From Eledone cirrhosa (taxonomy: Eukaryota), in the NCBI GenBank assembly GCA_964016885.1, contig OZ024741.1:363692001-363756000 (forward strand): a stretch of DNA of 64,000 nt. The letters are read 5' to 3'. Numbering within the stretch: the first letter of the stretch is position 1; the number at the start of each line of letters is the position of its first letter. The position numbers and the translations under genes were made by a program. The notes below the pieces were generated by a model. The model had not been told where the DNA came from. It was given only the letters and a program-made list of their open reading frames with translations, and made no database searches. This document shows positions 1 to 51,600 of the stretch, piece after piece.

Positions 1-1884
1 GATCGATTCTCTCTCTGATTAGTTGCGCTATTACTTTTTCCGTGACCTTCATGACCTGGTCGATTAATTTAATGCCTCTATAGTTACTCCTATCTAGGGC
101 GTCTCCTTTACCCTTGTAGCAGTTAATGATGATGCTGCTATGCCAGTCCGTCGGAACAACCCCATTCTGTATGACTTGGTTTACTATCCGTGTGACCATG
201 GTGTGTCCCACCGTTCCAGAGGCTTTCAGCATTTCAGCAACTATTTCCGAAGGCCCAGCCGCCTAACCCGTCTTCATATCTTTGATTGCCTTACTTATTA
301 TACTACCTTCGACTAACACTCTATTGGGTCGATGTGGGGGAGACTTTCTTTCTCCCATTTATTCTCCTCATTTAGTAGCCTTTCGTAGTGACACTTCCAA
401 GCTACCTTCTTATCAGCGTCAGTGATGGCAAGTACGCCATCATCATTAAGTACACACTTCTCCCCGACAATATCACGGTTTTCCTTGACACATTGCCTAG
501 CAATCCTGAACACCTCACGTTTTTGGTCCTCGCGTTGAAGAACATGCTTGAACTTTCTTTCCTCTGCTTCCCTTCTTGCGAAGTACACTTGTCTCCTAGC
601 TTCCCTCCTGGCCACTTGATAGTCTTCTCTACTTCCCCCATCCCGCCATACTTTCCAAGCCTGCTTTTTGGCCTTAATTGACTCCTCCACCTTACTGTTC
701 CACCACTATGTTACTCTCCTCCTGCCTAGAGGCCTGCTCCAGCCACAGACTTCGTCTGCCGCCATCAGCAGGTTTGCTTTCAGGAATTGCCACTGTTCCT
801 CTATATTGTACGACTCTAATTGCTCTTCCTTACTGTTGAAAGCATCAAGTAATATGCTTTTAAATTTATTTCTGGCTGTGGGGTCCTTTAGCTTCCATAT
901 TTTTCTCCTGAGGATAGTCCTCTTCTGCTGTCGAGTACGTCTCGTCCTGACTATGAGGTCGCTAATTATCAGTCTATGTTGGGAGGTGCATTCTTCATAG
1001 GGGAGGGATTTAGTGTTTACAACAGACACTCTGTCACGTCTTCTGGTAAGGATATAATCTACCTGGCTGGTATGTTCCCCTGATCTGTAGGTGATCAAGT
1101 GATTGTCTCGTTTTTTGAAGTTAGTGTTACAGATAGTTAGGTTATTTGCATCACAGAATTCCAGGATTCTGGAGCCTTCCTCATTTCTAGTACCAAACCC
1201 ATAGCCTCCGTGGATTCCGTCATAGCCGTCACAATTTTGACCAACATGGCCATTTAGGTCGCCAGCAATAATTATATAGTCACTGTCGGTTATTTGGGAG
1301 GTAGTGAGCATCAGTGTCTCATAGAATCTCTCTTTTATAGCGCCAGGCAGTCTGGATTGGGGCGCGTATGCCGATATTACTGTCACAGTAGTTCTATTTA
1401 GAACAAGTCTTATTTTAATTATTCTATCATTTACTCTATTTACATCTATTATCTTATCCACCCATTTTTCTGCTAACATGATTCCTACCCCACCTATCCC
1501 ATTGTCATTTCCCACCCAGAAAAGCTTATAGCAACGTTTTTTACCCACAATGAATCTAGCAGACGCGCCCCTCCACCTGGACTCTTGGATACAGCAAACA
1601 TCAACCTCCTTACGTTCAAGCATTTCTACAAGCTCGTTAGAGCGGCCTTTTAAGGTGCCTACATTTATGGTACCAACTCTGAAGTTTTGGATTGTGTTTG
1701 GAGGATGGGGCGCAGGGATGGGTGAGGGGGATGGGGTTGGGGTTATGTTGGCCATCCACGGACGAAACAAAGAGGAGGGGGCCTTGCCCTTTCGTCCGGC
1801 AGCATGAGGTGAATTTGTCGTTATCTTTGGCATTGTCATCGAGTGTCCAGATTCTTCAGACTCTCCAGAAATTCCATAGTCCAT
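1..1884 (-). pseudogene. Disrupted APE endonuclease-reverse transcriptase ORF
   Basis: TAG at ~706 where the other copy has TGG, and a stop at ~313; ORFs 706..1884 and 313..690 are collinear with the 48650 copy. Confidence 0.85.
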
Positions 1885-1992: not shown

Positions 1993-3015
1993 AGCAAAGA
2001 GAAGATTATTTAGAACAATATGAATATATGGACCGATAGGTTGGAGAGAGATAAGGAAAATGGCATTTACATTATACTTCGCAGGGAACGACGAGGTCTG
2101 ATCATTTATAAGCGTTGACAAATTCTGAGATTCGTACCTCGCGATAGGTTTATTTATATTTGGTGAGATAAGGGAGTGATTGAAAGGGTGACCTAGCCGG
2201 CTCGTAATACGATATAGTGGGGCCGGGGGTAAAGGATTAGAGGGACAATGAGGCCATTTTATAAATCCTAGCATTTTTCGGCCAAAATTAAACAAACAAG
2301 ATTGTTATTTTAGAAAAGCAAAGAGAAGATTATTTAGAACAAATGGGGTAGTTAGCGAGAGGTTTTAAATGAAATCTTCGAATTTTGGGGGGCATAATTG
2401 GAGAAGCATATAACAGTAATAATAAGCGAATAATGGGGTTTTAAAATACAAGAAGATTATTTACAAACAACCAGACAGAATTATAGAATAGCATTGAGAG
2501 AGAGAGCAAAGATTGGATTTTGGGCGATAATACGGATATATGAATGAATGGACCGATAGCAAAGAGAAGATTATTTAGAACAATATGAATGAATGGACCG
2601 ATAGGCTGGAGAGAGATAAGAAAAATGGCATTTACATTATACTTCGCAGGGACGAGGTCTGACCATTTATAAGCGTTGACAAATTCTGAGATTCGTACCT
2701 CGCAACAGGTTTATTTATATTTGGAGAGAGAAGGGAGTGATTGAATGGGTGAGCTAGCCAGCACGTAACACGCTATAGTGTGGACGGGGGGTTAAGGATA
2801 AGAGGGACAATGAGGCCATTTTATAAATCCTAGCATTTTTCGGCCAAAATTAAACAAACAAGATTGTTATTTTAGAACAAATGGGGTAGTTAGCGAGAGA
2901 TTTAAATGAAATCTACGAATTTTGGGGGGCATAATTGGAGAAGCATATAACAGTAATAATAAGCGAAAAATGGGGTTTTAAAATACAAGAAGATTATTTA
3001 GAAACAACCAGACAA
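1993..3015. repeat. Imperfect ~565-bp tandem duplication upstream of the RTE ORF
   Basis: 1993..2478 aligns with 2558..3015 (agcaaagagaagattatttagaac ... acaaccagaca). Confidence 0.85.
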
Positions 3016-3056
3016 TATAATGTATATATATATATATATGTATATATATATGTATA

Positions 3057-3119
<63 letters not shown>

Positions 3120-3160
3120 ATATGTATATGTATATATGTATATATATATATATATGTATG

Positions 3161-3213
<53 letters not shown>

Positions 3214-3228
3214 GTATATATGTATATG

Positions 3229-3288
<60 letters not shown>

Positions 3289-3289
3289 T
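3016..3289. repeat. (TA)n/(TATG)n microsatellite
   Basis: Direct reading. Confidence 0.97.
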
Positions 3290-3328
3290 GTGGGAAAGTT
3301 AAAATTAAGGAACACTTGTGATTATTTA

Positions 3329-3368
3329 TGCCCTTGAGAAGCCCAACTGGGCGAAATGTACGTAGGTG
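3329..3368 (+). ncRNA. Minimal hammerhead-like motif (U3-A8 core variant) in a ~300-bp pLTR-like island
   Basis: cc-TTGAGAA-gccc(aact)gggc-GAAA-tgtacg-TA-gg; near-palindromic stem III; stem I only 2 bp; AATAAA just downstream. Confidence 0.5.
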
Positions 3369-3585
3369 ATATTTTAAATAAACATGTTTTAACGGTCTAT
3401 TCTCCGATTTTTAACTTTCCTACGTGCTTACGCTCTGCTAACTCTCTAGCCCACTAAATATTAATACTTCGAATATTTATTACTGCCGGCACTAGTATCG
3501 AGCACCTTTGGCATACGCTACTTGGCAAATAACTATATGTATCACCTATCCCTCCTTTTTCTCTCTTTCTCGATACGTAAATACT

Positions 3586-5032
<1,447 letters not shown>

Positions 5033-5124
5033 ACTTTGAACTTTGAATAACTTTGAAATGTTTTGGCCAGTATTGGCCCAGGCCATCTCTAACTTAATAG
5101 CACCACCTGGCGAAGTCTTTCAAT

Positions 5125-8100
5125 TCAGGATTTGGGCACCATGGCCCATTCGAGAAGAGAATTACTGTTTGCGGAGACATATCCGGGTGTGGGTGGTTTG
5201 TCCGGGATTACTTGGAGGAATTTGTCCAAAGACTTCTTGAATTTTGTGTGGTCAGTTTCTGTTTTGACGTGTCCTGGTGTGATGTTGAAGAGAGCAGGGC
5301 CGATTGAGGTGAAATAATTGTGCCGTATTGTTGTTATGAGTTGCGATTTAGATTTTTGAATGGGACGGATAGCACGGGGCCCAAGCCTTGGGTGTATCTT
5401 GAAGGCGATGCCAACATCATTTGGGCAGTGATGATGGAACATTTTCCACATCATGCAGATAATATAACGCTCACGGCGACGTTGGAGTGAGTAAAGTTTC
5501 AGGTTTTCCAATCGACCCCAGTAGTCAAGGTCTGACATGCCATCTATCTTTTTCGTGATTGCCCTTTGAGGAGCTTCAAGTTTCATGATACTTTGTTTCG
5601 TGTGGGGAGACCACAGTGGACAACAGTATTCAAGGTGTGGTCGGGCGAAAGTAGAGAAGAGAAGGATAATGGTGCGGGAATCTCTCGACTGGAAGGTTCT
5701 GAGGATCCAGGAACACATTCTGCGGGCCATGTCAACTTTGCTGCTTATATGCGTGGTCCAGCTTATGTTGCTGTCCACGGTTACTCCCAAGTCTCTGATG
5801 TTGTTAGATGCCACGAGAGTTTCCCCGGAGGGAAGGGAGTACGGGAGTTTCAGAGCATCCTCTTTTCCAAAGTGGATCAGTTCGAATTTGTCTTCGTTCA
5901 GTAACATGTTGTTCTTTTCTGCCCATTGGGTAACAGCCAGTAGGTCTGACTGAAGGCTTATCCGGTCATCCACGCCATTGATGACCTTTTGGAGCTTGGA
6001 ATCATCAGCGAAAATTTTAATGTTGCTGTGTTTGATGATGTCAGTGATGTCATTAATATAGATGATGAAGAGAAGTGGGCCCAACACAGTGCCTTGTGGG
6101 ACTCCACTACTGACTTTGGCTGGGCTTGATTTGACTCCCTCAACTACAACATGTTGGGTTCTGTTTGACAGGAAGCTCTTGATCCACTGCAGCAGCTTTC
6201 CAGTGACACCAATATTGGACAGCTTTCTCAGTAGAATGTTATGATCAACCCTGTCAAAGGCCTTGCTGAAATCAAGGTAGATAACATCAGTGTTGGAACC
6301 CTCTCCCAAGGCTCTCAAAATGTCATCAAAGTGATGCAGTAGTTGCGTCAGGCAATCCCTTCCATTACGGAATCCATGCTGGTTGGAGTTCAGCATATTG
6401 TTACTCTCAAGGAAGTGGGTCATTCGCGATCTCACCACTCGCTCAAATACCTTAATGATATGAGAGGTGAGTGAGATTGGACGGTAATTCACGGCAAGGG
6501 ATTTGTTTCCCTTTTTGAAAACTGGGACAACAGACTGGGATAGAAGGTTTTCTGGCACATATCCAGCATCCAGTGAGTTCCGCCACAGATTGGCAAGAGG
6601 AGAAGCAAGTTGGTGTTGACACGCCTTCAAGACACAAGCAGGGAACCTATCGGGACCTACTGCTGAATTATGCTTGATTTCCTTTATTGCCGCCAAGACA
6701 TCAGGGGCGCCAAACGTTATGTCCGATAAGGTGTAATGGGGAGTAACATCGCCGATACAGCCCAGATCGGCCATATCAGGATTGCTGAAAACAGAGCAGT
6801 ATTGTTTCTGCAGTATCTCACCCATGGTTTTAGCATTGTCTTGAAGAGTGCCATTTTCATCAATTAGAGGGCCAACAGTAGAGCCAGTGATTTTGTGTTT
6901 TTTTGCAAATGAAAAGAACACTTTGGGATTGAGTTTGATCTTCTCAATGGCCCAGGCCTCTTCAGCTCTTCTCTGATTGTTGATGAGGGACATTATGTTG
7001 TTTTGGAGGTTATGTTTTTTAATCTCTAGTGATGAAATGGCAGTCAAGTTGATGTGTTGCTGCTGACAGTATTTCAGATTGTTGATTTTTTTGTTCGTTC
7101 TCTTAATTTTTCTGATGAGCGTTTTTCTATTTCTAGGGATTCTGCTCTTAGATTTGTTTATAGTTCTTAATGGGGTGTGTTTAGCACATATGTTTGTAAC
7201 AGTGTCCACAAATGTCTGCCAGGACTTTTTGATGTTAGTGGGTGTATGAGTGTGCGTGAAGGACCAGTCGACATGTGCAAGATCATGACTGATCGCTTCC
7301 CAGTTTGCATTGTGGAAATCCATAGCGTCAAACGGATGGACAGGAGAAATGACATTGGGTTTGTATATTGGACGGTGGAATCTCAGATCACAGAGAACCA
7401 TGTCATGATCAGAGAGTAGAGTTTTCTCCACTGCAATATTGTGGATATTGTCAGTGTGATTGCTGAAAATTAAGTCTAGGACGTTTTTGTGGCACCTCGT
7501 TGGTTCGAGCACTAGTTGGGATAGGAAGAAATCATCCATGAAGTCAAGAAGCGATTCCACAGCTTCCCTGTCAGAGGTTGAGGCAGAAGAACCTGGTGGC
7601 AGGGTGTTTGTGGACCAGTCAACTCCGGGGAGGTTGAAGTCCCCCATCATTAAGATGTTGTCAGGGTGACACTCTTGGATGAAACACTTTATGCTGTTGA
7701 GGCATTCCTTGAAGCATGGTACAGGCGTTTGGGGTGGCCTATAGAGCCCAACTACTAATAGGTTGTTGGTTTGACTGAATACAGTGACTGCCTCACAGTA
7801 TCCATTAGTGAATATGTTCATAGCCTCTGTTGAGAAAGAATTATGGACATAAATGGCAGTTCCGCCCTTTCTTCTGCCAGCGCGATCAGCACGGATGGCT
7901 TTGAAATTTTTCACTTTCACCTCGGCTTCCAAGTGGAGGTTACTGAGATGGGTTTCAGTGAGGACGAAGAAAGGGATGTGGTTTGGATGGACATCAATCC
8001 AGTCCTCCAGGAATTTGATCTTCCATTTTTGAGTATTGGTGGAAGGGCTGATGCCTTGGGCGTTAAGCAAAAATGTAGAGGCGAGAGTGGATGGTTTTAA

Positions 8101-8145
8101 TTGTTTTGGTGTGTTGTTAATTTGTTTGTTTGTTAATGGCAGCAA
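5125..8145 (-). CDS. LINE ORF2: APE endonuclease + reverse transcriptase (frame open up to 8262; no ATG before the APE motifs)
   Basis: LTETHL, GLYRPP, MGDFNLP, SDHD, YRPISLTS, QHGFR, LDFSKAFDRV, GVPQGTVLGP, FADD; CR1-type C-terminus [18 protein letters not shown]; 1006 aa with no stops. Confidence 0.95.
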   Translation of the reverse strand: MLPLTNKQINNTPKQLKPSTLASTFLLNAQGISPSTNTQKWKIKFLEDWIDVHPNHIPFFVLTETHLSNLHLEAEVKVKNFKAIRADRAGRRKGGTAIYVHNSFSTEAMNIFTNGYCEAVTVFSQTNNLLVVGLYRPPQTPVPCFKECLNSIKCFIQECHPDNILMMGDFNLPGVDWSTNTLPPGSSASTSDREAVESLLDFMDDFFLSQLVLEPTRCHKNVLDLIFSNHTDNIHNIAVEKTLLSDHDMVLCDLRFHRPIYKPNVISPVHPFDAMDFHNANWEAISHDLAHVDWSFTHTHTPTNIKKSWQTFVDTVTNICAKHTPLRTINKSKSRIPRNRKTLIRKIKRTNKKINNLKYCQQQHINLTAISSLEIKKHNLQNNIMSLINNQRRAEEAWAIEKIKLNPKVFFSFAKKHKITGSTVGPLIDENGTLQDNAKTMGEILQKQYCSVFSNPDMADLGCIGDVTPHYTLSDITFGAPDVLAAIKEIKHNSAVGPDRFPACVLKACQHQLASPLANLWRNSLDAGYVPENLLSQSVVPVFKKGNKSLAVNYRPISLTSHIIKVFERVVRSRMTHFLESNNMLNSNQHGFRNGRDCLTQLLHHFDDILRALGEGSNTDVIYLDFSKAFDRVDHNILLRKLSNIGVTGKLLQWIKSFLSNRTQHVVVEGVKSSPAKVSSGVPQGTVLGPLLFIIYINDITDIIKHSNIKIFADDSKLQKVINGVDDRISLQSDLLAVTQWAEKNNMLLNEDKFELIHFGKEDALKLPYSLPSGETLVASNNIRDLGVTVDSNISWTTHISSKVDMARRMCSWILRTFQSRDSRTIILLFSTFARPHLEYCCPLWSPHTKQSIMKLEAPQRAITKKIDGMSDLDYWGRLENLKLYSLQRRRERYIICMMWKMFHHHCPNDVGIAFKIHPRLGPRAIRPIQKSKSQLITTIRHNYFTSIGPALFNITPGHVKTETDHTKFKKSLDKFLQVIPDKPPTPGYVSANSNSLLEWAMVPKS

Positions 8146-9320
8146 TGGGAGTTTGTGCAGTGGGGTGATAGTGGAGGGTGGTGCTGGGTGATAGCTCGAA
8201 TGTTTTTTTCCAGTTCTTTTGCCAGATTCATTATGGCTAAAAAAGAGGAAGAAGTTTCCTGTTTAGAAGACTGTTGGTGACTGTGGTAGTGGTTATTTTT
8301 ATGTAGGTTATGGTTTTTGTTTTTGCTTTTATTTTTAATTTTATTTTCATTTATCCGACGGGTCCCCGGGAGATGGGTAAAGGGACAATCCCGGTCTAAA
8401 CACAATCTGTCTCGCAGGGAAAAACGGCAGATTTGTGGATTCCTTGTTTGAGTTATTGGTGGTTGTGTTGGTGTTAAATTAGAGTATGTATTATGGTGGT
8501 GGCTGTTTGTGGGGATAGATCGTTTTGTCCTAGGTAAATGGGTGAATTTGCAGCCACTATCCGTACATATTCTATAGCGTAGAGAGTAGCGGCAAATGAT
8601 GGGGTTTCGAGTGGGTGGGTATATGGGTGTGGGTGTTGTGAGAGGTGTAGATGATGGTTTGGGTAGGATTTGACGACCTTTGTGGACTGTGGGAGGGAGA
8701 GTTCTTGTTCTGGTATTAGAAGGTAAATTCCTTGACATAGCAGTAGACAAAAATGTTGTAGTAGTAGTAGTAGTAGGCAGAGATGTTGGCAGTGGTGATG
8801 ATTGGACTGCTGGGCCAGAGAAAGGATGTGGCGTTTCATGCTGTGAGACAGAGGCTACTGGGGGGTCAATAGTTTCATTTAGTAGATCGGCCATTGTTGA
8901 TGAATCAAGGAGTGGTTCACACTGTTGTTGTTGCTGTTGTTGATGTTGTTGTTGTAGCTGTTGTTGATGTTGTTGTTGTAGCTGTTGTTGTTGTTGCTGT
9001 TGTAGCTGCTGTTGTTGTTGTTGTTGCTGTTGTAGCTGCTGTTGTTGTTGTTGCTGCTGCTGGACAGCATTCGAAGAGAAAACACACCGTAGTTTATCCA
9101 AATGTTTATTGATTAATTTAAAAGCAATTTCGATTTGCTTTAATTTATTTTGAATCTGTTGTTCAGATCGAGTTTTCAAAAATTGAACTGTACGTTTAGC
9201 AATGTCGTTCAGAGATGAAGCATCTATATCTTCTGTTTGGGAAAGGCAATGCCATGTGTTTATTAGAATGTCGATTTCATTATCAGACCAGTTCTGTTTG
9301 GATTTTTGCTGGTTAGCCAT
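8133..9320 (-). CDS. LINE ORF1: Myb/SANT-like N-terminus, polyQ tract, two CCCH zinc fingers
   Basis: WSDNEIDILINTW...RSEQQIQNKLK; Q-run; C-x8-C-x4-C-x3-H twice; directly upstream of and overlapping ORF2. Confidence 0.85.
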   Translation of the reverse strand: MANQQKSKQNWSDNEIDILINTWHCLSQTEDIDASSLNDIAKRTVQFLKTRSEQQIQNKLKQIEIAFKLINKHLDKLRCVFSSNAVQQQQQQQQQLQQQQQQQQQLQQQQQQQLQQQHQQQLQQQHQQQQQQQCEPLLDSSTMADLLNETIDPPVASVSQHETPHPFSGPAVQSSPLPTSLPTTTTTTTFLSTAMSRNLPSNTRTRTLPPTVHKGRQILPKPSSTPLTTPTPIYPPTRNPIICRYSLRYRICTDSGCKFTHLPRTKRSIPTNSHHHNTYSNLTPTQPPITQTRNPQICRFSLRDRLCLDRDCPFTHLPGTRRINENKIKNKSKNKNHNLHKNNHYHSHQQSSKQETSSSFLAIMNLAKELEKNIRAITQHHPPLSPHCTNSHCCH

Positions 9321-9603
9321 TCTAGTTTTGAGTGTGTGTGTGTTTTAGTTAAGTATTTCAATATATATATATTTTTTTTTTAAATTTATTTTTGATTTAT
9401 TTTTGTTTTTTGTTTTTCTTGTGTGTGAGTGAGAAGCGTATATATATATAAATATGAGTATATATATATATATATATGTATATTCTGGTTATTTGAAATT
9501 AATTAAGTTAATGAAAAGACGAAAGTATATAATAATAATTTGTAGTTAAAGGAAAATGTACTCACAAGTTCGTGTGTGTGTGTTTTAGTTAAGTATTTTC
9601 AAT

Positions 9604-11276
<1,673 letters not shown>

Positions 11277-11887
11277 TGTCAGGTCACCAGTTGGTGCTAC
11301 TGGTAACATGTATCCCAGTACAACCTGTCTCATGGTCGGGTCGTTGGCGACTAAACTGGCAACCCCACCAAGGTTTCTTGGTGAGGAGGGTGACTTTGGA
11401 CATCCTGCAGGACTAAAAACAAAACCTGTCAAAGGGCAAAGGAGCTCTTAAGAGTCAATGGCCATCCAAAATCACCGGGAGAGATGACCCCTTAGCCTTT
11501 GTCAAGGCAGAATTCTAGGAGAAGGAAAACTCTGATATAACACCTGCAACCCTGATGGTATCCAATGATGTTGACTTGTTCTTCTTTTTGGTAAATATCA
11601 TCTTGGTTAAGAGAGTGGGACTGGCTTTGTGCAGTGCCTTTGCTCACTATAAAAGCTTCACGGCACAGGCATTGCTTTATATCTGGAGATCTCTCTGCAC
11701 ATGTCGTCACATGGTACCATGGGCCCAACACTATGTGTCAATAATTGTCACAAGTGTAGTCTTTGTACCAGAGTTTTCAAGTCGCTGGCTGGACTAAAAA
11801 GTCACACTCGTTCAGCGCATCAGTAGGGGTTCTCCTACATGGATATAAAGTAGTGGCCGTACTCGAAAACGAGTTGGCAGCCACCAT
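11277..11887 (+). mobile_element. ~610-bp non-coding retroposon, full-length copy
   Basis: Same ends as 43227..43831; TA on both sides; no credible ORF. Confidence 0.8.
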
Positions 11888-27498: not shown

Positions 27499-29381
<1,883 letters not shown>

Positions 29382-45225: not shown

Positions 45226-48200
45226 GTCCTGGCTATGACATTAAACTACATCCAGTGGCAAGGCTCCAGTTCGGGAGTTCAGGAGATGTGGGGAATGTGG
45301 AGTTACCCCTTAGTTGTCATGACTCCCAGGTCTGCCCTGGCCCGGGGTGGTAGTACCTGTTAGGGCTCCATTTATGGGTTAAATAACTACCTTATTCGAG
45401 TGGCGCCGGTAAGGTATTGTCAGCCATTGAAAAGAAATATGGAGAGTCGATCTAACAGCACTAGGGTTAGAGCCCCTAATTACACTGTCAAGGAGCAGCC
45501 TGGTCGTTATGACTCTGCTGGCTTAGAGCCACAGAGAGGGCCAGTGGATGATGGATCAGCTGTCTCTGAGACAAATATAAAGAATGCAGTTTTGTCCTGC
45601 AGAAGAGCCATCAAAATGGGCACTTTGAATGTGAGGACTATTCGAACGCTGGAGAAGAGAGAGGAGTTGGGACATCTGTTCGAGGAGAGTGGTATACAGA
45701 TACTTGCGATCCAAGAACACAGGATTCTACACGATGAGCCCGTGAGGAGTGTGATGATCGGGAGGAAGAGCCAGCTCATCACTACATCGGCAGTGAAGAA
45801 CACAACAAATGCTGCAGTAGGAGGAGTGGGTTTTGTGTTCAGTGCAAAAACCAATCTGTTGGTGAGGGAAATAATGCCTATCTCCCCGCGAGTGTTGAGG
45901 GTGACCTTCAATGGAAACCCAAGACTGACAGTCATCTCAGCCTATAGTCCAACCGATGGGGACAGTGATGTGAATGCCGAGGAGTTCCATGAGGAGGTGT
46001 GTAGAGCTGTCAACACCACTCAGGCACACAATATCCTGCTTGTTTTGGGGGACTTCAATGCACATCTGAGTAAGGAGGGCAGTGAAGATCCTTGCTGGTA
46101 CTTCCATAACAACACCAACCGAAATGGAAGACTACTGAGAGACACCCTCCTGGAGGCGAACTTGATGGCGACCAACCTAAGGTTTAGGAAGAATCTGGGG
46201 AAGATGTGGACCTACATCTCAGATATGCACCTGTCCAAGTCCCAGATTGATTTCATTCTGGTGAGGAAAAAGTGGCGGAATAGTGTTCTGAACACGGAAC
46301 CATACAGCTATTTCAGTACACTGGGTAGTGACCACCGGCTTGTTATGAGTGAGGTCCGCGTGAGCTTAAGAAAGAGCAAGGCTCAGCCCCGGAGAACAAT
46401 CTATGACTGGGGAGCTTTCAAGGAAGATGATAAGCTACAGGAGAGGTTCACAGTGGAAGTGAGAAACAGGTTTAGTGCTCTGTGTGGAGAGTCAGAGGAG
46501 AGAGAGATTGGATGGACTGAGGAGAGTGTGACGAGGAGGTACGGGCACTTCCCCAATGCAGTGGCGAAAGCAAGTGAAACCCTGGTGCCGAGGAAAAAGA
46601 ACAAAGGGAAGCACGTCAGTTCTGCAAACCCAAAAGTGTGTGCAGCTAGAGAACACCTGAAAGCTGCCAGGGACCAATTCTATGCTGATCCTACGGAGGA
46701 GAGGATGGAGACTGTGGAGGTGATGAGGGAAGAGCTCTGTACCGCTTACACTGAGGTCAGAGAGGAGGCACTGATAGAGAAGATCAGAAGTGTGGAGAGA
46801 GCGGTTGACAGATCTGGATGTAAGGAGAGCTGGATGATCATCAACGAGATCACAGGGAGGAAGAAAAGGTGTTCGAGTCAGATCCAGGGAACGGGGCCCG
46901 AGGATAGGAAGAAGAAATGGCTAGACCATTTTAGGACCCTACTAGGAGAGCCACCCTCCACAGCCCAGAGCACTGGGGAGATCAGGCGGCTGTTTGAGGA
47001 ACTGGATGTTGAGACAGAGCCCTTCACCAGAGAGGAGCTTCAGAGAGCCAAGAAGAAGATCAAGGAGGGCAAGGCTCATGGAGAAGATGGAGTGGCATCA
47101 GAGGTGATGAGGAGGTGTGATTTTGATGATATCATCTTGGGGTTCTGTAACGGGGCACTGGAGAAAGGAGTTGCCCCGAATCAGTGGAGGATCAGTAACA
47201 TCGTCCCAGTGCCAAAGAAGGGAGATCTCTCTAACACCAACAACTACCGGGGGATCTCACTGACATCACTTGTGGCAAAGACCCTCAACAGGATGATTCT
47301 TAACAGGATCCAGCCTGAGATGGAGAAGAAACTCAGGGACAACCAGAACGGCTTCAGAGAGGGTAGATCAACCACCAGTCACATCCTGATGCTGAGGAGG
47401 ATATTAGAGGGAGCTAGAGCAAAGTGCCTTCCTGCGGTCATGGTTTTCATTGACTTTAGGAAGGCCTTTGATTCTGTGGACCGTTACTGCCTGATGAAGA
47501 TCTTACAGGCTTATGGAATCCCCAAGAGGATAGTGGACCTGATATCACTGCTCTACACCAACACCAAAGCCCAAGTCATTACACCTGATGGGATGACAGA
47601 GTTCTTTGAGATACTGGCTGGAGTGCTCCAGGGAGATACATTGGCTCCCTACCTTTTTATCATCGTAGTGGACTATTGTATGCGCCTTGCACTGGAGAAA
47701 CACCAGGACACTGGCTTTACTGTAGCACCGGCTCAGAGCAGGAGAGTTGGGGCGAAAAAGATATCGGATGCTGAATTTGCCGACGACATAGTTTTGGTGA
47801 CAAATACAGTGAAGGAGGCAGAGGATTTGATGCGGGAGGTTGAGACTGTGTCGATGAGTGTGGGGCTGAGAATGAATGAGACTAAAACAAAATATCTGGT
47901 AGAGAATGTTGAGAAGCCAGAGGGGATCACTAATGTAGGCGGGAAGCCGCTGGAATTGGTTGAGGACTTCCTGTATTTGGGAGCAAAGATTGGGAATACG
48001 GAGGATGATGTGGTTGAGAGGAAGAGCAAGGCCTGGGCGGCGTGTCACAGCTTGAGATCGGTGTGGAAGTCGGACCTTCGTAGAGACCTGAAAATCCGCC
48101 TCTTCATTGCTGTAGTGGAGTCTGTGCTGCTGTATGGGTCTGAGACTTGGACACTGACCAAGAGACTCACTCAGATGGTGGATGGGTGCTACACGAGAAT

Positions 48201-48649: not shown

Positions 48650-51600
48650 TGTGGTGGTACCATAAATGTAGGCACCTTAAAAGGCCGCTCTAACGAGGTT
48701 GTAGAAATGCTTGAACGTAAGGAGGTTGATGTTTGCTGTATCCAAGAGACAAGGTGGAGGGGCGGGTCTGCTAGATTCATTGTGGGTAAAAAACGTTGCC
48801 ATAAGCTTTTCTGGGTGGGAAATGACAATAGGATAGGTGGGGTAGGAATCATGTTAGCAGAAAAATGGGTGGATAAGATAATAGATGTAAATAGAGTAAA
48901 TGACAGAATAATTAAAATAAGACTTGTTCTAAATAGAACTACTGTGACAGTAATATCGGCATACGCGCCCCAATCCGGACTGCCTGGCGCTATAAAAGAC
49001 ACTGATGCTCACTACCTCCCAAATAACCGACAGTGACTATATAATTATTGCTGGCGACCTAAATGGCCACGTTGGTCAACATTGTGACGGCTATGACGGA
49101 ATCCACGTAGGCTATGGGTTTGGTACTAGAAATGAGGAAGGCTCCAGAATCCTGGAATTCTGTGATGCAAATAACCTAACTATCTGTAACACTAACTTCA
49201 AAAAACGAGACAATCACTTGATCACCTACAGATCAGGGGAACATACCAGCCAGGTAGATTATATCCTTACCAGAAGACGTGACAGTGTGTCTGTTGTAAA
49301 CACTAAATCCCTCCCCTATGAAGAATGCACCTCCCAACATAGACTGATAATTAGCGACCTCATAGTCAGGACGAGACGTACTCGACAGCAGAAGAGGACT
49401 ATCCTCAGGAGAAAAAATATGGAAGCTAAAGGACCCCACAGCCAGAAATAAATTTAAAAGCATATTACTTGATGCTTTCGACAGTAAGGAAGAGCAATTA
49501 GAGTCGTACAATATAGAGGAACAGTGGCAATTCCTGAAAGCAAACCTGCTGATGGCGGCAGACGAAGTCTGTGGCTGGAGCAGGCCTGTAGGCAGGAGGA
49601 GAGTAACATGGTGGTGGATCAGTAAGGTAGAGGAGTCAATTAAGGCCAAAAAGCAGGCTTGGAAAGTATGGCGGGATGGGGGAAGTAGAGAAGACTATCA
49701 AGTGACCAGGAGGGAAGCTAGGAGACAAGTGTACTTCGCAAGAAGGGAAGCAGAGGAAAGAAAGTTCAAGCATGTTCTACAACGCGAGGACCAAAAACGT
49801 GAGGTGTTCAGGATTGTTAGGCAATGTGTCAAAGAAAACCGTGATATTGTCGGGGAGAAGTGTGTACTAAATGATGATGGCGTACTTGCCATCACTGACG
49901 CTGATAAGAAGGTAGCTTGGAAGTGTCACTATGAAAGGCTTCTAAATGAGGAGAATAAATGGGAGAAAGAAAGTCTCCCCCTCATCGACCCAATAGAGGG
50001 ACCAGCAGTGTTAGTAGAAGGTTGTATAATAAGTAAGGCAATCAAAGATATGAAGACGGGTAAGGCGGCTGGGCCTTCCGAAATAGTTGCTGAGATGCTG
50101 AAAGCCTCTGGAACGGTGGGACACACCATGGTCACCCGGATAGTAAACCAAGTCATACAGAATGGGGTTGTTCCGAAGGACTGGCGTAGCAGCATCATCA
50201 TTAACTGCTACAAGGGTAAAGGAGACGCCCTAGATAGGAGTAACTATAGAGGCATTAAATTAATCGACCAGGTCATGATGGTCACGGAAAAAGTAATAGC
50301 GCAACTAATCAGAGAGCGAATTGATCTAGATGTAATGCAGTTCGGGTTTGTGTCAGGCAAAAGTACCACAGACGCTCTTTTCATTGTACGACAACTACAG
50401 GAGAAGTACCTAGCTAAAAGTAAACCCCTATACTTAGCTATCGTCGACTTGGAGAAAGCCTTCGACAGAGTCCCCCGTTCCATTATCTGGTGGGCTCTTA
50501 GAAAACTAGGTGTTGATGAATGGCTTGTGAGAGCTATACAAGCCATGTATAAAGAAACAGTCAGCAAGGTTAGAATTAACAACGAATATAGTGAAGAGTT
50601 TAGCGTAAAAGTTGGTGTTCATCAGGGCTCTATTCTTAGCCCCCTACTATTTATTATTGCCCTTCAGACTATAACAGTGGAGTTCAAGACCCGCTGCCCA
50701 TGGGAACTCCTATACGCAGATGATCTAACGCTCATAGCTGAATCAATGGTCGAGCTAGAGAAGAAATTCCAAACATGGAAGCACGGCCTAGAATCAAAAG
50801 GCCTTAAAATTAACCTGGCTAAGACTAAAGTTCTAGTTTGTAGGAAAGAAAATAAGGCGCCGGTCCCTTCAGCGAAATGGCCATGCTCAGTGTGTAGGAA
50901 AGGCGTAGGTAGAAACTCCATTTTATGTCCCAAATGCAAAGTATGGGTGCATAAAAGATGTAGTGGGATCACAGGTAAGCTAACTAAGAACATAGATTTT
51001 ACATGTGGCCGATGCTCTGGTGCAATAAGTAGCAGCAAGTGCCCACCAAATACTAGCTCTTTCAATTGCGCAGAGGGTTCTATAGAAATAGTGGACAGCT
51101 TCCGTTACCTGTGTGACAAAATCAGCAGTGGGGGAGGGTGCTCTGAAAGTACAGTAGCTAGAGTCAGAACTGGATGGAAAAAGTTCAGAGAGCTTATACC
51201 ACTATTAGCCGCTAAAGGGTTCTCCCTATAAATGAAAGGCAGGCTGTATGATGCCTGCATACGAACAGCAATGTTGCATGGCAGTGAGACCTGGGCATTG
51301 TGTGCAGAGGATATACGCAGACTAGAGAGGCACGAAGCTTGCATGCTCCGCTGGATGTGTAATAGTAACATACGCGAACGGTAAAGCATAAACGAACTAA
51401 GGGAAAAATTAGAAATAAGAGGGATCAGATGTTGTTTACTCGAGAGAAGGCTACGTTGGTAGGGTCACGTGATGCGCATGAAAGACGACAGCTGTATAAA
51501 AAGTGCAGGGCAATAAAGATAGACGGTAGCTACGGAGTAGGCAGACGCAGAAAAACCTGGAACGACCTGATACACTCCGACCTCACATACTTACACCTCT

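Follow-up and report, generated by a model that had tools for sequence, protein, structure and literature searches.

Comparative evidence for a predicted -1 frameshift at a conserved slippery heptamer between ORF1 and ORF2 of a CR1-like LINE

How does a retrotransposon translate an enzyme whose reading frame offers no usable start codon? The question is raised by a CR1-like long interspersed nuclear element (LINE) in a 64,000-nucleotide (nt) stretch of Eledone cirrhosa DNA (contig OZ024741.1, positions 363,692,001 to 363,756,000; hereafter the window), in which the second of two open reading frames (ORFs) overlaps the first in the -1 frame. The translation of LINE ORF2 is a long-standing puzzle and has mainly been studied in L1. 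The comparative evidence from sequences described here suggests that a large and old group of animal LINEs uses a retrovirus-like slip that fuses the two proteins. For the window element itself, we estimate the probability of a programmed -1 frameshift yielding an ORF1-ORF2 fusion at roughly three in four. All junction coordinates refer to the minus strand of the window and the features are collected in Table 1.

The ORF1 protein carries an N-terminal W-S-x-x-E..L..W motif, a poly-Q stretch and two CCCH-like fingers. It has no Pfam match, and a protein search returned a single weak match with 27% identity over 18% of the query. ORF2 contains an endonuclease (approximately 8073-7405; Exo_endo_phos, E = 2.3e-7, and Exo_endo_phos_2, E = 6.6e-14) followed by a reverse transcriptase (RT; approximately 6510-5779; RVT_1, E = 4.2e-31), and this combination of an N-terminal endonuclease of the apurinic/apyrimidinic (APE) type with an RT is that expected of the CR1 group. 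An earlier, sequence-only reading of the window had placed T TTT TTA at 8244-8238 in the ORF1 frame and ORF2 in the -1 frame, open from 8262, with a first ATG beyond the N-terminal APE motifs, and all of these statements were borne out. ORF1 reads TCT TTT TTA (S-F-L) at the heptamer and the -1 frame reads TTT TTT AGC, which then continues open to 5125. The first methionine of the ORF2 frame is residue 156, located past both the N motif LLNAQGI (around residue 67) and E103, the invariant glutamate of LTETH. The junction thus shows two hallmarks of a -1 frameshift site, an in-phase X_XXY_YYZ heptamer and a -1 ORF that is open without a usable start. Only two canonical in-phase heptamers occur in ORF1 and both lie inside the 43-codon overlap. 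The sequence-only reading had given the first correctly and overlooked the second, A_AAA_AAC at 8208-8202, which could have arisen by chance at a background rate of 0.004 heptamers per codon. This second heptamer may be a chance product or an additional slip site.

In the mechanism that we propose, a minority of ribosomes would slip back by one base on U_UUU_UUA, where the phenylalanine and leucine transfer RNAs (tRNAs) on UUU UUA would re-pair with UUU UUU, and AGC would be read as the next codon. The slipped ribosomes would then translate a linker of about 60 residues, rich in serine, threonine and proline, followed by the endonuclease and the RT, while the non-slipping ribosomes would end ORF1 35 codons later at the UAA at 8135-8133. 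The predicted products are an abundant ORF1 protein and a small amount of fusion, as for Gag and Gag-Pol. The ORF1 tail past the slip site begins with F-L and resembles an amphipathic helix in all eleven families of the set compared below; as this helix lies after the slip site, the predicted fusion would lack it. The sequences show the geometry, an ORF2 without a start codon of its own and a signal deeply conserved in its nucleotides; the slippage itself, its rate and the role of the fusion as active enzyme are inferred.

Copies within the window family were uninformative on conservation. A junction query of 501 nt gave 1179 first-look candidates in the 3.0 Gb genome, and all of the 40 scored copies were 100% identical over this stretch; the family is very young, as indicated by this identity. 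A search of the genome with an ORF2 protein yielded 45 scored candidates without an internal stop and 49 match rows, 41 of which cover almost the entire query. The identity was found to hold to window position 9566 or beyond in 25 of the 41 loci that reach the junction. Since the copies within the family are too alike, other families were compared.

Database relatives of ORF2 (P0002-P0006, the best three having 38-41% identity) were used as queries. P0006 recovered two further CR1-like families from the same genome, designated A (L062 and others) and B (L066 and others); P0005 found the same families and P0003, used on the element's own genome, returned only the window family. ORF2 lies in the -1 frame to ORF1 in both families, with overlaps of 226-301 nt (A) and 271 nt (B), and TTTTTTA stands in the ORF1 phase 6 nt (A) or 78 nt (B) past the opening of the -1 frame. 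The site reads (S/N)-F-L in ORF1 and F-F-(S/R) in the -1 frame. Neither family has an ATG ahead of the endonuclease motif, and ORF1 stops at the start of the endonuclease domain. The heptamer is retained in all eleven copies found by pattern search of the 16 fetched loci, and A_AAA_AAC is absent from the place of the second heptamer in both families. An SH(x)CC C-terminus was observed in ORF1 of both the window element and family B.

Eight further families with TTTTTTA (L071/72, L073, L074, L075, L078, L079, L104/105 and L114) were found in metagenome contigs, and these form, with the window family and families A and B, a set of eleven that we refer to as the U6A families. TTTTTTA and the G that follows it are invariant in all eleven, always in phase with ORF1 and near the start of the -1 overlap. 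The proposal of the sequence-only reading that ORF1 and ORF2 are fused by -1 frameshifting thus passes the comparison across related CR1 families, and it gains support both from this conservation and from the heptamer swaps described below. The eight columns TTTTTTAG are invariant, and among the 15 nt preceding and the 22 nt following them no column agrees in more than nine of the eleven; the gapless identity of the flanks is 31% upstream and 39% downstream. The conservation was found to lie at the nucleotide level. The codon preceding the heptamer ends in T in every family (residue S, N, D or R), phenylalanine is always TTT (background 0.60), leucine is always TTA (background 0.12), and the following codon always begins with G, the residue being A, G, V, E or D. 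For these fixed choices taken jointly, the probability is 5e-18 when the families are assumed to be independent, which is not fully true. The heptamer is conserved among the relatives beyond the needs of the protein and, judged on these sequences, its occurrence across families is far beyond chance.

The frame relation around the site is kept as well. The -1 frame opens 0-105 nt before the heptamer in the eleven families (0-6 nt in six of them) and continues without interruption into the endonuclease domain, ORF1 stops 15-270 nt after the heptamer, and at least seven families lack a methionine in the stretch that leads from the site up to the endonuclease motif. In 17 families, the 983 codons of the -1 frame that precede the ORF1 stop, counted from the heptamer, include not a single stop, whereas stops occur at 0.085 per codon upstream and at 0.068 per codon when the +1 frame is read; the result is partly circular as the overlap is defined as open. 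In a quick RT tree, which has unnamed rows and no named CR1 or L2 reference elements, the window element, families A and B, L071, L073 and L074 fall into one clade with 100% support in the Shimodaira-Hasegawa-like approximate likelihood-ratio test (SH-aLRT), and the U6A heptamer is present in each of the six rows of this clade whose junction is known.

Scanning metagenome contigs with an alignment of the endonuclease brought up 64 loci at 24-41% identity. A hand-picked tally of 17/19 was discarded, being biased by the choice of rows, and replaced by an automatic tally of 67 loci comprising the window element, L062, L066 and the 64 metagenome loci. An overlapping upstream ORF of at least 90 residues was found in 35 of the 67 loci, with ORF2 in the -1 frame in 28 and in the +1 frame in seven. 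With the duplicates L072 and L104 dropped, 17 of the 26 -1 loci carry a canonical in-phase heptamer in the overlap, compared with 5.2 expected if heptamers were as frequent there as in the upstream parts of these ORF1s (27 in 6544 codons). Among the -1 loci with an ORF1 of at least 300 residues, such a heptamer is present in 14 of 16, L085 and L102 being the exceptions. Several heptamers other than TTTTTTA were found at the junction, namely AAAAAAC (L090, L113 and L120), GGGAAAC (L118 and L120), TTTAAAC (L082) and AAATTTT (L103). The exchange of one heptamer for another at the same place agrees with tRNA slippage, but neither with a splice site nor with a protein motif.

The relatives also differ in the type of their ORF1, with PHD fingers above the Pfam cut-off in L118 and L120 and a GDSL esterase in L082, where the esterase-type ORF1 occurs together with U_UUA_AAC. 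A survey of ORF1 proteins (PMC4120745) describes PHD and esterase types for CR1 and L2 lineages. In the clade of the window element, which uses U_UUU_UUA with the following G, the ORF1s are of the PHD or CCCH type. An ATG within the overlap or just past it was found in five of the seven +1 loci (L076, L077, L092, L094 and L099), the overlap being short in all five (41-116 nt). This ATG precedes the ORF1 stop by 5 nt in L076 and L077, a coupling-like layout, and another +1 locus, L121, is a member of the GGGAAAC family in which an A run is shorter by one base. This distribution fits two possible modes of expression, with coupled initiation at an AUG where ORF2 is in +1 and slippage where it is in -1.

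The sequence-only reading had pointed to a GCCA-9 nt-TGGC hairpin that follows the heptamer directly. The hairpin is indeed present at 8237-8221, but it was rejected as a stimulator as it has only 4 base pairs (bp), begins at the base after the heptamer and is not conserved. A hairpin in this position would lie inside the ribosome while the heptamer is decoded. No stimulatory stem-loop or pseudoknot was found 5-9 nt downstream in the window element. The fold of a 141-nt junction stretch has z = -1.85, with 6 of 200 shuffles folding as well. With no helping structure, slippage, if it occurs, would rest on the heptamer, perhaps aided by the invariant G. This G creates a UAG in the +1 frame and could thereby stop -2 slips. 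The low basal slip rate of the heptamer, without any RNA structure, could suffice for a LINE.

Several observations weigh against a programmed frameshift at this site. The 90 nt past the heptamer are no more stable than shuffles (z = -0.36), RNAalifold found no consensus pairs in the eleven U6A families, and few of 17 families have a stable hairpin 7-8 nt past the heptamer (L079 and L082). Pairing of the 3' untranslated region (UTR) with the 45 nt past the heptamer was tried and rejected, at -18.6 kcal/mol compared with -15.8 +/- 3.2 kcal/mol for shuffles (49 of 300 equal; z = -0.87). The families share common ancestry, so that the probabilities given above overstate their independence, and the F-L at the site opens a conserved ORF1 helix, so that the conservation is partly at the protein level. 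Nine of the 26 -1 loci have no canonical in-phase heptamer, and most of these are short or cut ORF1 candidates, but two of the nine, L085 and L102, have ORF1s of 362 and 372 residues; in seven loci ORF2 is in +1. The database ORF2 proteins P0002 and P0006 are annotated from a methionine just before the endonuclease motif, though such starts are choices of the gene caller. Finally, contigs of run X9 contain an abundant related family, about 5-15% diverged, with six majority changes in the overlap and none in either heptamer, a retention that is weak evidence as chance is estimated to give the same about half the time. Runs X6 and X7 cover the stretch only in part.

Four other explanations of the junction were weighed. 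Ribosomes might stop at the UAA at 8135-8133 and restart without an AUG, for example at TTG 8145 or CTG 8142, giving a separate ORF2 protein as is held for L1 and SART1. TTG 8145 does fall in the ORF2 frame, TTG and CTG codons of this frame stand just ahead of the ORF1 stop, and this stop lies within about 60 nt of the endonuclease start in the window element and right at the start in families A and B. Coupling is also present in the wider group, as seen in the +1 relatives L076 and L077, and ORF2 of L1 is said to use an unknown, novel type of initiation (PMC5009743). However, the window element has no AUG there, and between the heptamer and the ORF1 stop its -1 frame offers 105 nt of open sequence. 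Restarting leaves unexplained why the -1 frame is open for 105-270 nt before that stop, beginning near the heptamer, and why an in-phase heptamer with fixed synonymous sites is invariant; we consider this route unlikely. A splicing explanation, in which UUUUUUAG is a 3' splice site (after CUUCUUCCUC here) and an upstream donor is joined to 8237, would place ORF2 behind the start codon of an upstream exon. The stretch 8254-8237 resembles a pyrimidine tract plus AG and the G past the heptamer is invariant in all eleven families, whereas in families A and B the AG follows no more than T6, which in turn comes after purines, and the relatives with A_AAA_AAC, G_GGA_AAC or U_UUA_AAC have neither AG nor pyrimidine tract at this place. 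A splice site would also require no upkeep of the ORF1 phase and the -1 relation, and, on this comparison of the acceptor side, we judge splicing to be very improbable.

Slippage of a polymerase or of the reverse transcriptase on T6 or A7 could likewise add a base, so that the frames would be fused in the RNA. The overlap does contain runs of six U and seven A, yet the G_GGA_AAC and U_UUA_AAC of the relatives have no long run, and such slippage needs no ORF1 phase whereas the phase is kept in all families. No gap was found in 41 of the 42 copies that span a 251-nt junction query (L050 has one gap), a weak test as these copies are the best matches. The case for an added base appears slighter even than that for splicing. 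Within the window family alone, an open overlap of 43 codons is not very unlikely in A/T-rich coding sequence and the second heptamer is compatible with the background rate, so that overlap and heptamers might be accidental and ORF2 expressed in some other way. The conservation in eleven families and the heptamer swaps speak against this, which makes accident the least probable of the four. Programmed -1 frameshifting is accordingly the reading that we prefer.

Table 1. Features of the CR1-like LINE junction, given in window coordinates except for the two relatives.
Feature	Position	Strand	Remarks
Full-length CR1-like LINE	5045..9603	-	(TA)n-type microsatellite at both ends; limits approximate
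ORF1	8133..9320	-	395 aa; ATG 9320 to stop TAA 8135-8133
ORF2 frame (-1)	5125..8262	-	1045 open codons
Last -1-frame stop (TAA) before opening	8263..8265	-	Retained in run X9
Overlap open in both ORF1 and -1 frames	8133..8262	-	130 nt, 43 codons
U_UUU_UUA heptamer, predicted -1 slip site	8238..8244	-	In phase with ORF1
Second in-phase canonical heptamer, A_AAA_AAC	8202..8208	-	Specific to window family
GCCA-9 nt-UGGC hairpin	8221..8237	-	4 bp, no spacer
Hairpin at classical spacing	L079:552-581		Relative
Hairpin at classical spacing	L082 ~920-955		Relative

Other observations were made on the element and its copies. The window copy sits between two (TA)n-type arrays, at 2935-5119 and 9546-11451. 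Thirteen of the 45 scored ORF2 candidates are 5'-truncated, twelve of them cut at 8067-8244 and one at 8466, and a TA-rich repeat was found directly upstream in all thirteen 5'-truncated copies read (among L032-L054). Microsatellites of the (TA)n type appear to be the insertion target of the family. Four copies with distinct flanks (L039, L046, L049 and L051) share the identical truncation base 8215 (minus strand), which lies between both heptamers; such truncation points may stem from microhomology to the TA target, or the search may have been biased. The 5' UTR contains an exact 27-nt direct repeat, at 9332-9358 and 9572-9598, 240 nt apart, and both units are present in most full-length copies. 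A second 5'-truncated copy occupies window positions 28720-29245 (minus strand), where the last 146 ORF2 codons are preserved with 100% identity and (TA)n upstream. Other RT remnants, about 30% identical to the LINE ORF2, were found at 47023-47673 (plus strand), 50038-50676 (plus strand) and 29-289 (minus strand), and presumably represent the Penelope-like element noted in the sequence-only reading.

If the prediction holds, the ratio of ORF1 to ORF2 would be set by a signal of seven letters and there would be a physical reason for cis-preference. ORF2 annotations that start from the first ATG would be wrong for such elements. We also propose, tentatively and at somewhat less than even odds, that the CR1 group ancestrally and usually makes its enzyme by -1 frameshifting at a bare heptamer, independent of RNA structure, using U_UUU_UUA with the following G here and A_AAA_AAC, G_GGA_AAC or U_UUA_AAC elsewhere. 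In that case this group, among the largest of animal LINEs, would have as its active RT an ORF1-ORF2 fusion resembling Gag-Pol, and the fusion by itself would keep the enzyme attached to the ORF1 particle of its own RNA. No description of -1 frameshifting in CR1-group LINEs was found in open-access full text, a scope outside which lie the older papers on CR1, Maui and jockey, where predictions may already exist. Two surveys of CR1-group ORF1 proteins (PMC4120745 and PMC13343379) contain neither 'frameshift' nor 'overlap' in their text.

Among non-LTR elements (those without long terminal repeats, LTRs), SART1 uses coupling at UAAUG and L1 uses termination-reinitiation. Both resemble the window element in having a bicistronic LINE RNA from which a rare ORF2 product is made by an unusual route. 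They differ in that their ORF2 protein is separate and no slippery heptamer is involved, whereas the window element has no AUG, a long overlap and a conserved heptamer. A recoding review treats HeT-A, TART and L1 among the non-LTR elements (PMC5009743). The elements TRE5-A and TRE3-A of Dictyostelium are APE-type non-LTR elements with an ORF1 and an APE-RT ORF2, and according to a figure legend in a review their ORF2 requires a -1 frameshift (PMC5911963). They belong to another lineage and host, and the likeness is one of description. The 2A-like peptides, reported for ORF2 proteins of CR1, L2 and Crack elements in one source (PMC13405545), are also a recoding device that places upstream sequence and the APE-RT of the CR1 group in one reading; a 2A peptide splits a single-frame product in two, whereas the window element would join two frames.

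A further parallel is found in the gag-pol -1 sites of retroviruses and LTR elements. U_UUU_UUA is the gag-pol heptamer of human immunodeficiency virus type 1 (HIV-1). In these systems, as at the LINE junction, the structural ORF ends shortly past an in-phase X_XXY_YYZ heptamer, with the enzyme ORF in the -1 frame and lacking a start of its own, and the fusion is made at a low ratio, as would be the case here. The review cited above gives pol in the -1 frame in 28 of 51 animal LTR elements, many of them with such heptamers (PMC5009743). The window element differs from these in being a non-LTR element that has no protease for cleaving the fusion, in having no stem-loop or pseudoknot at the usual 5-9 nt, and in an ORF1 that continues for 35-90 codons past the site. 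The site would thus be a further case of the known -1 frameshift sites that join the structural and enzyme ORFs of retroelements, and its interest lies in its extension to a whole group of LINEs.

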